In this document: positions 34,450 to 41,991 of the stretch, piece by piece
Layout of the letters: every line of letters begins with the position of its first letter
Position numbering within the stretch: position 1 is the first letter of the stretch
DNA from: Escherichia coli
GTDB lineage: Bacteria; Pseudomonadota; Gammaproteobacteria; Enterobacterales; Enterobacteriaceae
Reading direction: 5' to 3' (one strand)
Assembly (NCBI RefSeq): GCF_003334385.1
Contig: NZ_QOWN01000005.1
Length of the DNA stretch: 64,000 nucleotides
Program-made: the position numbers and the translations under genes
Notes under the pieces: model-generated
Seen by the model: only the letters and a program-made list of their open reading frames with translations
Database searches by the model: none
Told to the model about the DNA's origin: nothing

Positions 34450-34818
34450 TTTATTTATATTGCGAATATAAATATTTTCTGAAAATCATATCTCATCTCT
34501 TTCCTTAATTACGATTTTAGTTTAAACATCTCTTTGCGGAAATAATATAACTTCCTATAAATAAATATCAATCCCATCTCCATACCCTAACCAATTGCAC
34601 TTGTGAACTTATTTTTACTTAATTTTGAATTAAGTAAATTTAATTTGTTCAAAAGCTTCTAAAGTGCACAATAGGCGACCTAATGAACAATGGTTGTAAA
34701 TTTGGGTAACAAATATCATTGCTCATTAATATCTAACATTTGTTTCTCCTATTTGTGTCATGAATAGTCATTCTTCAAACATGTAGTCTGACTAATGGAA
34801 TTTTATTAAAGGATTTTT
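34450..34818 (+). promoter_or_regulatory. AT-rich control region upstream of the yad fimbrial operon
   Basis: 369 bp of strongly AT-rich sequence with A/T tracts between folK and yadN; GC far below flanking core genes. Confidence 0.45.
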
Positions 34819-35403
34819 ATGTCTAAAAAATTAGGTTTTGCCCTGTCTGGTCTTATGCTGGCGATGGTTGCAGGTACTGCTTCTGCTGATATGGACGGCG
34901 GTCAGTTAAATATCAGTGGTCTGGTTGTTGATAACACCTGTGAAACCCGCGTTGACGGCGGTAACAAGGATGGTCTGATCCTGCTGCAAACCGCAACCGT
35001 TGGTGAAATCGATGCTGGCGTACTGAATGACACCGTTGGCGCTAAAGCTAAACCTTTCAGCATCACCGTTGACTGCAGCAAAGCAAATCCGAATCCAGGT
35101 AGCACGGCTAAAATGACCTTCGGTTCTGTTTTCTTTGGTAACAGCAAAGGGACTTTGAACAACGACATGTCTATTAACAACCCATCTGACGGCGTTAATA
35201 TCGCTCTACACAATATTGATGGTTCCACTATCAAACAGGTTCAAATTAACAACCCTGGCGATGTGTATACTAAAGCCCTGGATGCAACGACAAAATCTGC
35301 TGTTTATGATTTTAAAGCGTCTTACGTTCGTGCCGTCGCAGACCAAACAGCAACTGCTGGTTATGTAAAAACTAACACTGCATACACCATTACTTATCAG
35401 TAA
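34819..35403 (+). CDS. yadN: Fimbrial major subunit-like protein (194 aa)
   Basis: [23 protein letters not shown] signal peptide; fimbrial-type C-terminus ...AYTITYQ. Confidence 0.9.
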
Positions 35404-35500
35404 GTATTCACCAGTTAAATTGATTGAATGAATATACAGGGAATAATAATTTCTATTTTATATTATTCCCTGTTTTAATTAACTCTATCAGGGATGGTTT

Positions 35501-36241
35501 ATGTTTTTTAACACCAAACATACAACAGCTTTATGCTTCGTAACCTGTATGGCTTTTAGTTCATCGTCTATTGCGGACATTGTCATTTCGGGTACTCGCG
35601 TAATATATAAAAGCGATCAAAAAAGTGTCAACGTACGTCTGGAAAATAAAGGGAATAACCCGTTGCTTGTCCAGAGTTGGTTAGATACTGGCGATGACAA
35701 CGCTGAGCCTGGCAGTATTACAGTCCCTTTTACTGCTACGCCGCCAGTATCGCGTATTGATGCCAAACGTGGGCAAACAATCAAATTAATGTACACAGCC
35801 AGCACCTCACTGCCTAAAGACAGAGAGAGCGTGTTCTGGTTTAACGTACTGGAAGTTCCACCAAAACCAGATGCAGAAAAGGTCGCGAATCAAAGCCTGC
35901 TGCAACTGGCATTTCGCACACGTATAAAACTTTTCTATCGCCCGGATGGATTGAAGGGAAATCCCTCTGAAGCCCCGTTAGCCCTGAAGTGGTTCTGGTC
36001 AGGTTCAGAAGGTAAGGCGTCATTACGAGTGACCAATCCAACCCCTTACTACGTCTCTTTTAGCAGTGGTGATTTAGAAGCTAGCGGTAAACGCTATCCG
36101 ATTGATGTGAAAATGATTGCACCATTTAGTGATGAGGTCATGAAAGTCAATGGCCTTAATGGCAAAGCGAATTCTGCAAAAGTGCATTTTTACGCCATTA
36201 ATGACTTTGGTGGCGCAATTGAAGGTAATGCCAGGCTGTAA
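35501..36241 (+). CDS. yadV: Periplasmic fimbrial chaperone, PapD-like (246 aa)
   Basis: MFFNTKHTTALCFVTCMAFSSSSIA signal; RVIY...NNP...LLVQSWL chaperone pattern. Confidence 0.9.
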   Translation: MFFNTKHTTALCFVTCMAFSSSSIADIVISGTRVIYKSDQKSVNVRLENKGNNPLLVQSWLDTGDDNAEPGSITVPFTATPPVSRIDAKRGQTIKLMYTASTSLPKDRESVFWFNVLEVPPKPDAEKVANQSLLQLAFRTRIKLFYRPDGLKGNPSEAPLALKWFWSGSEGKASLRVTNPTPYYVSFSSGDLEASGKRYPIDVKMIAPFSDEVMKVNGLNGKANSAKVHFYAINDFGGAIEGNARL

Positions 36242-36275
36242 TCAGGCAAGGATATAATTCCGCAGGAAGCATAGC

Positions 36276-40076: not shown

Positions 40077-40102
40077 CAGACTTACAGATTCAGGAACTAT
40101 AT

Positions 40103-40699
40103 ATGCATCCCACTCAACGTAAGCTGATGAAGAGAATAATTCTGTTTCTGTCATTACTGTTTTGCATCGCCTGTCCAGCCATTGCTGGACAGGATATTGA
40201 CCTTGTTGCCAATGTAAAAAACAGCACCTGCAAAAGCGGAATCAGTAACCAGGGTAATATTGATCTTGGCGTCGTTGGGGTGGGATATTTTTCAGGTAAT
40301 GTTACTCCTGAAAGTTATCAACCAGGTGGAAAAGAGTTCACTATCACTGTATCCGACTGTGCATTACAGGGAACTGGCGATGTGCTAAATCAGTTACATA
40401 TTGATTTTAGAGCCCTTAGCGGTGTCATGGCTGCTGGCTCTAGGCAAATATTTGCTAATGAAATTTCGTCAGGAGCAAGTAATGTAGGAGTAGTTATATT
40501 TTCTACTCAGGATTCGGCGAATACATTCAATGTTCTTAATGCTTCAGGCGGATCTCGTTCCGTTTATCCAGTAATGTCGGATGACATGAATGGTTCATCC
40601 TGGAAATTTAGCACCCGAATGCAAAAACTCGATCCTGCATTGAGTGTTACATCTGGTCAACTTATGAGCCATGTGTTAGTGGATATTTACTACGAATAA
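40103..40699 (+). CDS. yadK: Fimbrial subunit-like protein (198 aa)
   Basis: MHPTQRKLMKRIILFLSLLFCIACPAIAG signal. Confidence 0.88.
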   Translation: MHPTQRKLMKRIILFLSLLFCIACPAIAGQDIDLVANVKNSTCKSGISNQGNIDLGVVGVGYFSGNVTPESYQPGGKEFTITVSDCALQGTGDVLNQLHIDFRALSGVMAAGSRQIFANEISSGASNVGVVIFSTQDSANTFNVLNASGGSRSVYPVMSDDMNGSSWKFSTRMQKLDPALSVTSGQLMSHVLVDIYYE

Positions 40700-40748
40700 C
40701 AAACAAAAACAGCGCAAACCATAACAATAAAGAAACATTGGAGTAAAA

Positions 40749-41987
40749 ATGAAGACTATCTTCAGGTACATTCTTTTTTTAGCACTGTATTCTTGTTGTA
40801 ATACAGTCAGTGCATATACAAGTTTTATTGTGGGAAATAATGCAGGAGTTGATAACTATCGAGGCCCCTCCACTGCCGCACAGATGACCTTTAATTACAC
40901 ATCAACAGCAAGCAACTTGGTTTTTTATAAACCCACGCAGCTCGGCCCGACTGGGGTAAAAATGTACTGGTCATACCTGGATACAGGTACCGGTGGTGGT
41001 ATTCTTTACTGCAATACATCTGGCAGAGCGAATCCTGGTCCAATAACTATTGAAAATGCCATGGTCTATTCAGGTAAAGATTATGGCGGACATAAACTAT
41101 TTAATACATCTGTTCCTGGTCTGTATTACACCATGTTAATATCAAGGGTCTGGTCTGCATACGATACAATAACTGACATTCAATCGCCAGGAATCTATAT
41201 CGGAGATCCTTCCAACCAAGAATTTTTCTTTTCCGTCACAGACAGCGATCTACAAACTAAGGGTTGCAACAAAGCAGACGACTACGATAAGTTTTGGGCT
41301 ATTGGTGGTATAGTACACAACATAACTGTTGAATTTTATACAGATACTAATTTCGATCCTACACTTAATCAGCAAGTCCAGTTATCCAGTTCATCAAATT
41401 ACCTTTATTCGTTTAAGGCCTACAGTCCTGGTACAAAAGTTGTAGATCACAGCAACCACATTTATGTCAATTTCACACTGAATAATGTCAAATTAACCTT
41501 ACCAACATGTTTTACCTCCATACTTACCGGGCCATCAGTCAATGGTTCAACGGTTAGAATGGGAGAATATAGCTCTGGGACAATTAAAAATGGCGCTTCA
41601 CCTGTTCCCTTTGATATCTCGCTTCAGAATTGTATTCGTGTGCGTAATATTGAAACAAAACTCGTCACTGGAAAAGTAGGTACTCAAAACACACAACTGC
41701 TTGGTAATACGCTTACTGGAAGCACTGCCGCCAAAGGCGTTGGCGTACTCATTGAAGGTTTAGCAACCAGTAAAAATCCGCTAATGACATTAAAACCTAA
41801 TGATACGAATTCTGTTTATATAGATTATGAAACCGAAGATGACACCTCCGATGGGGTTTACCCTAATCAAGGTAACGGCACATCACAGCCTCTTCATTTC
41901 CAGGCAACATTAAAGCAAGACGGGAATATTGCTATCGAACCCGGCGAATTTAAAGCCACCAGTACTTTCCAGGTAACCTATCCCTGA
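40749..41987 (+). CDS. yadC: Fimbrial tip adhesin-like protein (412 aa)
   Basis: [22 protein letters not shown] signal; long N-terminal domain plus pilin-like C-terminus ...FQVTYP. Confidence 0.88.
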
Positions 41988-41991
41988 TAAC

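Follow-up and report, generated by a model that had tools for sequence, protein, structure and literature searches.

The locus analysed lies within a 64-kb stretch of Escherichia coli DNA, which is referred to below as the window. Seven genes, yadN-yadV-htrE-yadM-yadL-yadK-yadC, occupy positions 34819-41987 between folK and panB and are all encoded on the + strand (Table 1). This order was obtained from the ORF listing and from RefSeq annotation of a strain whose sequence is the same over positions 34000-42200, which cover the block and its flanks. All seven ORFs were intact and of full length when compared with NCBIfam profiles. The chaperone, the usher, YadL, YadK, and YadC passed the equivalog cutoffs, and all five subunits ended in the Tyr-X pilin motif (C-terminus ...Y-X). 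The profile matches agreed with the roles assigned in the initial annotation, namely a major subunit, a chaperone, an usher, three minor subunits, and a tip adhesin.

Table 1. Features of the folK-panB region, with positions numbered from the first nucleotide of the window
Feature	Position	Strand	Basis or remarks
folK	33970-34449	+	Left flank
folK-yadN intergenic region, 369 bp, GC 0.266; presumed to contain the yad promoter and to nucleate H-NS	34450-34818	+	AT content
Spacer palindrome, 19-nt arms 84% complementary	34606-34646	.	Core CTTAA-N7-TTAAG at 34618-34634
yadN, major fimbrial subunit, 194 aa	34819-35403	+	Best family StaA, 122 bits, under cutoff; C-terminus ...ITYQ
yadN-yadV intercistronic hairpin, 13-bp stem and 12-nt loop, followed by UUUU	35436-35481	+	Folding z = -2.96
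yadV (formerly ecpD), PapD-like periplasmic chaperone, 246 aa	35501-36241	+	NF007398 equivalog, 472 bits vs cutoff 285, residues 1-246/246
htrE, outer-membrane usher, 865 aa, GTG start	36276-38873	+	NF007337, 1701 bits vs cutoff 830
yadM, minor fimbrial subunit, 189 aa	38890-39459	+	Best family StaD, 148 bits, under cutoff; C-terminus ...FIYQ
yadL, minor fimbrial subunit, 201 aa	39471-40076	+	NF011795, 448 bits vs cutoff 392
yadK, minor fimbrial subunit, 198 aa	40103-40699	+	NF011794, 309 bits vs cutoff 132
yadC, two-domain tip adhesin	40749-41987	+	NF007268, 885 bits vs cutoff 382
Post-yadC hairpin, 16-bp, GC-rich, without U-run	41991-42027	+	Starts 4 nt past the yadC stop codon
panB promoter-like site, TTGCCC-16-TAAAAT, with TG	42037-42064	+	Promoter scan
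panB	42101-42895	+	Right flank

Comparison with K-12 MG1655 (b0135-b0141) revealed 1 nucleotide difference over 12 kb, with the same flanks, spacer, and gene order. The single change, at nt 40628, was YadK I176L, and nothing substantial besides distinguished the two; yadN was identical to b0141. Other E. coli chromosomes annotated with yadN...yadC were 100% identical to the locus. Identity with K-12 together with synteny confirmed the presence of a Yad chaperone-usher operon between folK and panB, and the seven-gene block is very probably the K-12-type allele of this operon (gamma-4 class), no observation speaking against this. The identification is already known and adds nothing; as indicated by the earlier description of a known operon, publications cover Yad, its repression by H-NS, the variation among its alleles, and its counterpart in Salmonella. 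Fimbriae of the operons from K-12 and O157 Sakai have been visualised and Yad has been classed as gamma-4 (PMC7098969), the literature placing both Yad and Sta in this class. YadN has been detected on the surface in ExPEC (PMC13245861).

Syntenic homologues of YadV carried PF00345 and PF02753. The cluster 98% identical to HtrE, named "Yad fimbria usher protein HtrE", carried PF13954, PF00577, and PF13953. The open frame of yadM reaches back to position 38848, and an allele class with six genes lacks yadL. In YadC, the Pfam Fimbrial domain was matched at residues 265-411 only. The AlphaFold2 model of YadC had a pLDDT of 88.6, and its full-length Foldseek matches were FimH, LpfD, PapG, and CupB6; as modelled, YadC is a two-domain adhesin composed of a lectin domain and a pilin domain. 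A PDB sequence search found no solved structure related to YadC, the identity to any solved adhesin being 15% or less. The lectin half had diverged more than the pilin half in every comparison. The ATG of yadC at 40749, which is also the K-12 start, is preceded by GGAG at 5 nt; the RefSeq start in the identical strain is an ATT four codons upstream.

Yad follows the same assembly logic as type 1 (Fim) and P (Pap) fimbriae: a chaperone of the PapD type and an usher work by donor-strand exchange, with a two-domain adhesin at the tip. The YadC model could be aligned from end to end with FimH and PapG. Yad differs from Fim and Pap in belonging to another usher clade (gamma-4, according to the literature). 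In the manner established for chaperone-usher assembly, all five pilin-like proteins would be exported to the periplasm, where PapD-like YadV would cap each pilin by donor-strand complementation and the HtrE usher would polymerise the subunits by donor-strand exchange. The YadC adhesin would enter first and end at the tip, the minor subunits would follow in a presumed order, and the YadN rod would be added last. The earlier statement that the receptor is poorly defined is in part outdated, since D-xylose has been reported as a ligand of YadC and annexin A2 as a host receptor (PMC6921372).

The GC content of positions 34450-41990 was 0.417, as compared with 0.525 in the rest of the window, and no segment of the same length elsewhere in the 64 kb fell under 0.495. 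The GC3 values of the seven yad genes were 0.34-0.41, while the other 44 genes had a mean of 0.570 (sd 0.041, minimum 0.484); thus, the yad genes held ranks 1 to 7 of 51 from the lowest (Mann-Whitney p = 1.3e-5). Codon adaptation of the yad genes to the local background was lower (p = 6e-5), and the codons ATA and GGA were enriched in them. A GC content lower than that of the flanking housekeeping genes had been claimed at the outset, and the GC and codon-usage check, set beforehand as a possible refutation of this claim, found the block clearly distinct from its flanks.

Of the 19 intergenic spacers measuring 100 bp or more, the folK-yadN spacer was the most AT-rich, and it had the lowest GC content of any 369-bp segment in the 64 kb (0.05% of segments were equally low). 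It had been described as a strongly AT-rich leader of 369 bp; the length and the AT-richness were correct, and the term "leader" is unproven, as a sigma-70 promoter/terminator scan gave nothing above shuffled expectation and no + strand promoter in this spacer. A cloned yadN promoter fragment has been reported to be under H-NS control (PMC13245861). Among E. coli alleles at least two spacer types were observed, sharing no more than about 51-58% identity; all were AT-rich (GC 0.26-0.31). The possibility that the spacer encodes a small ORF or an sRNA was rejected, as no ORF of at least 30 aa and no Rfam match were found there. Also rejected was a phase switch of the fim or pap type: unlike Fim and Pap, Yad has no invertible promoter, no recombinase genes, and no GATC in the spacer sequence, in which only short palindromes were present. 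Yad is reported not to be phase-variable (PMC13245861).

One of these palindromes sits approximately 185-200 bp upstream of the yadN ATG. A single copy of its core was present in each of the 9 loci retrieved and lay inside the yad spacer in all 7 that were checked, and the core was kept even in spacer types otherwise about 50% identical (L005 and L003/L012). This conservation makes the palindrome a candidate operator for a putative regulator.

Silencing by H-NS, also proposed in the initial annotation, was borne out by published experiments with hns mutants (PMC12460168, PMC13245861). K-12 yadC was upregulated in hns and hns stpA mutants (PMC12460168); in hns mutants of CFT073 and EC958, yad promoter activity rose more than 100-fold and all seven genes were derepressed, with complementation, and H-NS ChIP-seq occupancy is cited in the same work (PMC13245861). 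Like H-NS-silenced loci, the locus is AT-rich as a whole and has a promoter region that is richer still in AT. The high-affinity H-NS motif (TCGATAAATT-like, 2 mismatches or fewer), the count of which is a crude proxy, was not enriched, with 0.9/kb in the block, 0 in the spacer, and 1.2/kb elsewhere. The high-affinity motif is not required for binding of H-NS to AT-rich DNA. With the motif proxy not enriched, predicted H-NS binding therefore rests on the AT content and the published experiments. On the best-supported reading, H-NS bound to the very AT-rich upstream spacer and the AT-rich body holds the operon near-silent, and certain cues relieve the repression, with serum, acid, and low temperature or anaerobiosis acting in a strain-dependent manner.

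Two hairpins were predicted, one between yadN and yadV and the other immediately after yadC. The base of the yadN-yadV hairpin (CAGGG...CCCUG) was conserved and its upper stem compensated across six E. coli allele classes and Salmonella. RNAalifold missed this hairpin, the variable loop having been misaligned by MAFFT, and folding of each sequence separately showed it in all alleles. In Rfam, searched at E <= 1, the sole match was a miR-like one on the yadN-yadV hairpin, attributable to chance. This hairpin is likely an attenuator or an mRNA-stabilising stem, which would probably set the excess of the major subunit YadN.

The fold of the whole 126-nt yadC-panB spacer, including the second hairpin, had an energy of -44 kcal/mol (z = -7.0 vs shuffles). 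The stem sequence of the post-yadC hairpin varied among allele classes with the pairing kept, compensatory changes being found at 4 stem positions and in 6 of the 24 pairs of the full predicted fold. Conserved sequence restarts at the panB promoter-like site, a stretch with almost no variation among all the E. coli alleles. On its right side, the variable AT-rich block extended to approximately 42027, the end of the hairpin, and not to 41990. Judging from its conservation, the hairpin would mark both this edge and the 3' end of the operon, closing the transcription unit just ahead of the panB promoter as a terminator or a 3' stabiliser.

A fimbrial operon was found in the folK-panB slot in every E. 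coli lineage inspected, including an O157-like strain, and homologous operons occupied the same slot in the same orientation in Salmonella enterica, E. fergusonii, and E. whittamii. The arrangement folK-[7-gene chaperone-usher operon]-panB was common to Salmonella, E. fergusonii, E. whittamii, and the O157-like strain. No empty folK-panB junction was seen among the lineages inspected, the Salmonella sample consisting of sta-positive contigs only. The literature restricts sta to a subset of Salmonella serovars, with Typhimurium, for example, lacking it. The contig scan by HtrE alignment returned one E. coli locus, as its peptide patterns were too specific, and the context across genera was obtained from protein homologues and their contigs. 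Given the synteny with Salmonella and with the relatives of E. coli within Escherichia, any acquisition either came before the Escherichia-Salmonella split or consisted of allele replacement, with recombination in the flanks.

The Salmonella operon, Sta (staABCDEFG), shares with Yad the slot, the orientation, and the seven-gene order; Wurpel et al. 2013 described Yad and Sta as the same at this locus, ancestral, and core-associated (PMC3559732). Sta families were the best non-Escherichia NCBIfam matches of YadN, YadM, and YadL. The upstream spacer of sta is AT-rich (GC 0.294), and hairpins follow the major-subunit and adhesin genes, as in Yad. Sta and Yad proteins are 24-61% identical, whereas the flanking genes are 82-93% identical. 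Furthermore, the coding GC of Sta is 0.511 (usher GC3 0.68), near the host value of 0.546, and Yad is AT-rich instead.

The contents of the slot also vary widely within E. coli. Across five alleles, nucleotide identity per gene ranged from 99% to below 55% in differing combinations, with pcnB and panC at 95-97%. Usher identity within E. coli was 58-98%, while that of PanB stayed at 96-98%, and YadC clusters within Escherichia ranged from 100% down to 34% identity. The usher GC3 differed by lineage, being 0.38-0.44 in K-12-type Yad, 0.49 in the six-gene class, 0.53 in the O157-like class, 0.57 in E. whittamii, and 0.68 in Salmonella Sta. On these comparisons the slot contents are greatly diversified, the lectin domain of the adhesin most of all, and appear to have been shuffled between lineages by recombination. 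A more far-reaching reading, offered tentatively and with clearly less than even confidence, views the slot between folK and panB as a hypervariable fimbrial locus, ancient and trans-specific. Deep operon lineages (usher 58-64%, adhesin approximately 20-35%) would segregate in it within E. coli and differ in GC3, and the AT-richness of the K-12 type would be the state of one lineage and no relic of a recent foreign source, being either kept in situ or imported by allele replacement. If kept in situ, it may have come from selection for H-NS silencing or from mutation bias at a silent locus.

Allele replacement may by itself be the explanation. An AT-rich Yad-type operon of another lineage would then have taken the place of the resident one by homologous recombination through folK and panB, the slot itself being ancestral and the term "horizontal" applying to the alleles and not to the locus. 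Divergence at the level between E. coli and Salmonella (usher 58-64%) coexists inside E. coli with the high PanB identity given above, and the identities per gene are mosaic. Divergence is also raised next to the block, with folK at 89-95% and panB at 91-95% as compared with 95-97% for pcnB and panC; the usher GC3 values form a graded series; and recombination of yadC between phylogroups has been noted in a 2026 paper. However, the comparison comprises a handful of representative alleles, and long-term balancing selection on ancient alleles, together with compositional drift in situ, would look similar. We consider replacement a serious possibility, approaching an even chance but short of it.

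A reading in line with the initial annotation, in which the E. coli lineage recently took up a classical genomic island from a foreign, AT-rich donor into the folK-panB slot and the low GC is a vestige of that donor, is quite unlikely. It would fit the GC content of the block, the position of the yad genes as those with the lowest GC3 in the window, and the silencing by H-NS, which is typical of foreign DNA; the near-host GC of the syntenic Salmonella operon likewise makes the E. coli version look foreign. Nevertheless, the hallmarks of mobility were missing: no tRNA was found in 30000-46000, no flanking direct repeats bordered the fimbrial block, and no integrase or transposase gene was annotated between folK and panB. 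The same slot is filled, with the same order and orientation, across E. coli, E. fergusonii, E. whittamii, and Salmonella, and the synteny with Salmonella argues strongly against a recent insertion; in the literature the locus is described as core-associated and ancestral. Moreover, yad-type alleles, some with only 48-75% protein identity, all had GC contents of 0.416-0.432, so that the composition, being shared by all E. coli yad-type allele classes, is old and stable. The proposal of an island gained by horizontal acquisition is therefore unsupported as stated; the operon did not arrive recently as a mobile island, and its slot is ancestral and shared with Salmonella Sta.

It is very improbable that the operon has lost its function and is decaying, which would make it "cryptic" in the strict sense. 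The operon is silent under laboratory conditions, and some strains carry an internal stop in yadC, a frameshift in yadM, or IS insertions, but all seven ORFs are intact and of full length here and the hairpins show compensatory changes. Published phenotypes contradict the relic reading: fibres and adhesion have been reported, yad mutants are attenuated in colonisation, and the operon is induced in serum and in tissue.

If the folK-panB slot is indeed an ancient hypervariable locus, the operon lineages should differ predictably in their dependence on H-NS. Low GC and H-NS silencing alone should not be equated with a recent island, because the slot of this AT-rich block predates the Escherichia-Salmonella split. 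The GC3 series at one site, the conserved hairpin pair with the spacer palindrome, and the strains scored as lacking Yad are worth the attention of specialists. In a 2026 survey, strains of phylogroups D and E were scored Yad-negative at 80% usher identity; under the hypervariable-slot reading, such strains would carry deep variants and not an empty site, still holding a divergent operon between folK and panB.

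The window is chromosomal E. coli DNA, and its low-GC block at 34450-41990 was identified, in agreement with the initial annotation, as the Yad chaperone-usher operon, here in its already known K-12 form. In the surrounding 12 kb, only 1 base differed from K-12 MG1655 (b0132-b0144), at 40628, resulting in I176L in YadK. Several complete E. coli genomes annotated with folK, yadN, yadV, htrE, yadM, yadL, yadK, yadC, and panB were 100% identical over 34000-42200. In the RefSeq (PGAP) annotation of strain SCU-104, identical here, yadC starts at an ATT at 40737 (416 aa), whereas the K-12 gene starts at the downstream ATG (412 aa); since GGAG at 40740-40743 precedes this ATG, it is the likelier start.

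Features of the folK-panB interval and its surroundings
Feature	Position	Strand	Description
folK	ends 34449	+	upstream flank (ORF listing and RefSeq annotation)
CTTAA-N7-TTAAG palindrome	34618-34634 (wider palindrome 34606-34646)		folK-yadN spacer; candidate operator
yadN	34819-35403	+	major subunit
intercistronic hairpin	35436-35481	+	between yadN and yadV; 13-bp stem, then UUUU
yadV	35501-36241	+	chaperone
htrE	36276-38873	+	usher
yadM	38890-39459	+	minor subunit
yadL	39471-40076	+	minor subunit
yadK	40103-40699	+	minor subunit
yadC	40749-41987	+	two-domain adhesin
16-bp GC-rich hairpin	41991-42027	+	4 nt 3′ of yadC stop codon
panB promoter-like site	42037-42064	+	in nearly invariant sequence directly 3′ of the preceding hairpin
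panB	starts 42101	+	downstream flank
rpnC	43832-44734	-	Rpn family nuclease (Transposase_31 domain)

In searches of NCBIfam, five proteins matched over their full length and exceeded the curated cutoffs: YadV (NF007398, 472 bits; cutoff 285), HtrE (NF007337, 1701; cutoff 830), YadL (448; cutoff 392), YadK (309; cutoff 132), and YadC (885; cutoff 382). The best matches of YadN and YadM were Salmonella StaA and StaD, both under the cutoffs. All 5 subunit proteins ended in the pilin Tyr-X motif. In YadC, the Pfam Fimbrial domain was detected at residues 265-411 only, and a PDB sequence search found no solved relative; an AlphaFold2 model built from 30 homologues (pLDDT 88.6) aligned over its full length to the two-domain tip adhesins FimH, LpfD, PapG, and CupB6, with identities of 15% or less. 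These results bear out the seven gene roles first assigned, including that of YadC as tip adhesin, and the operon is complete and intact, with a chaperone, an usher, one major and three minor subunits, and a two-domain adhesin. With these components, assembly would follow the established chaperone-usher pathway: the Sec system would export the subunits, YadV would cap them by donor-strand complementation, and HtrE would polymerise them by donor-strand exchange, YadC entering first at the tip, the minor subunits next, and the YadN rod last.

Receptor specificity had been described as poorly defined, which is now outdated in part. D-xylose has been reported to bind YadC and inhibit adhesion, and far-western blotting together with co-immunoprecipitation identified annexin A2 as a receptor on the host side (PMC6921372; also Larsonneur 2016, as cited elsewhere). 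Allele-specific differences in YadC binding have been modelled only (2026 paper).

The GC content of the block was 0.417, compared to 0.525 for the rest of the window, and equal-length windows elsewhere were all at least 0.495. GC3 of the seven yad genes (0.34-0.41) occupied ranks 1-7 from the bottom among 51 genes checked (p = 1.3e-5), the non-yad genes having a mean of 0.570 and a minimum of 0.484, and codon adaptation to the local background was lower for the yad genes than for the other genes. The 369-bp folK-yadN spacer (34450-34818; GC 0.266) was the richest in AT of 19 intergenic spacers and the lowest-GC stretch of its length in the whole window. Composition and codon usage were thus distinct from those of the flanks, confirming what had been observed.

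The composition looks foreign, but all other evidence points to an old locus. The block was bordered by neither a tRNA nor a mobility gene, and repeats were absent from its flanks. At megablast sensitivity, and with a query that included parts of folK and panB, a single genome among 5,426 complete E. coli genomes gave no match and 3,913 covered at least 80% of the query; the poorly matching E. coli genomes inspected, among them the six-gene and O157-like types described below, still carried a fimbrial operon between folK and panB. Seven-gene operons lie at the same place in E. fergusonii and E. whittamii, and Sta of Salmonella enterica has the same order of folK, major subunit, chaperone, usher, three minor subunits, adhesin, and panB. 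Yad and Sta were considered the same ancestral locus by Wurpel et al. 2013 (PMC3559732), and Yue et al. 2012 treated the locus likewise. With mobility hallmarks absent and the slot filled in the relatives inspected, the proposed island and its horizontal acquisition fail in the usual sense, and should be replaced by an ancestral, hypervariable, recombining slot.

The slot is hypervariable and mosaic. Among five E. coli alleles, nucleotide identity to the window ranged per gene from 99% to less than 55% in differing combinations; one allele had 95-99% from yadN through yadL but 69% in yadC, and another had 95.5% in htrE but 51% in the spacer. Between E. coli strains, identity was 89-95% in folK (33970-34449), 91-95% in panB (42101-42895), and 95-97% in pcnB and panC, housekeeping-gene divergence increasing towards the operon. 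The raised divergence of folK and panB appears to stem from hitch-hiking alongside the variable operon or from breakpoints of recombination. Usher proteins in E. coli fell into tiers of 84-98% (K-12-type and related), 73-75% (six-gene), and 58-60% (O157-like), the last as distant as the Salmonella usher (60-64%), with PanB 96-98% identical throughout. Escherichia YadC clusters ranged from 100% down to 34% identity, and the lectin half was more diverged than the pilin half in every comparison, as also reported in the 2026 paper. GC was 0.416-0.432 in all yad-type blocks inspected from E. coli and E. fergusonii and approximately 0.47 in the O157-like and E. whittamii operons. The Salmonella operon differs, with GC of 0.511 near the 0.546 of its flanks and only its spacer AT-rich (0.294). 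Usher GC3 formed a series of 0.38-0.44, 0.49, 0.53, 0.57, and 0.68, and such a gradient across deeply separated lineages of a single slot is a mildly new point. In the few representatives compared, the variation fits either ancient alleles that have been kept at a single site or recurrent replacement of alleles via the flanks.

The six-gene class (loci L003, 10451-17437, and L012, 6243-13229; GC 0.43) lacks a yadL-type minor subunit, its usher and adhesin being 75% and 48% identical to the K-12 type. The 2026 survey scored Yad presence by an 80% HtrE threshold, under which this usher falls, so such strains were probably counted as Yad-negative; that they still hold a divergent operon in the slot is mildly new. 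E. coli strain 132 (cattle, O157-like; L002, 11454-22410, and L024, 1-28836) carries a deeply divergent seven-gene operon and, inside the folK-major-subunit spacer, a Mu-like prophage of approximately 39 kb (transposase, Gam, Mor, Com, and Mom) with one end lying 230 bp 5′ of the gene for the major subunit. This insertion cuts the operon off from most of its upstream region. Decayed operons with a yadC internal stop or yadM frameshift occur in some strains (L004, 8194-9537; L007, 6395-6965; other genome matches), as do IS903B, ISKpn26, IS1, and IS3 insertions.

H-NS silencing, also proposed initially, has been established experimentally by others. In K-12, yadC was derepressed in hns and hns stpA mutants (PMC12460168). 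In CFT073 and EC958, all seven yad genes were derepressed in hns mutants, a yadN promoter fusion rose more than 100-fold and was complemented, and H-NS binding at yad was seen in published ChIP-seq (PMC13245861). The same study reported induction by serum and infected tissue, attenuation of yad mutants, and no phase variation of Yad; consistent with the latter, the locus held no recombinase gene and the spacer had only short palindromes and no GATC.

The spacer palindrome occurred once per locus in 9 loci, lay in the yad spacer in all 7 loci position-checked, and was kept even between spacer types otherwise only approximately 50% identical, making it a candidate operator. We know of no regulator that binds it. 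The yadN-yadV hairpin recurred in Salmonella and across six allele classes of E. coli, its base (CAGGG...CCCUG) being conserved and changes higher in its stem compensated; judged from sequence, it would be the usual intercistronic attenuator or stabiliser giving major-subunit excess. The hairpin after yadC, contained in the 126-nt yadC-panB spacer fold (z = -7.0), kept its pairing across alleles despite differing stem sequence. As nearly invariant sequence with the panB promoter-like site follows directly, this hairpin marks where the operon ends and where the variable block truly stops on its right side. Likewise only mildly new are the two conserved hairpins and the spacer palindrome.

Compared to SCU-104, the window had 5 substitutions up to 60546 and was out of register from about 60547, implying an indel in yacH; read at the coordinates that the SCU-104 annotation gives for yacH and lpdA, the frames are no longer open. 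Between panC and panD, on the opposite strand, lies rpnC, which had the lowest codon adaptation among the non-yad genes. In Salmonella (L009), by contrast, panC directly adjoins panD, so rpnC looks like an Escherichia-specific insertion within the pan gene cluster.
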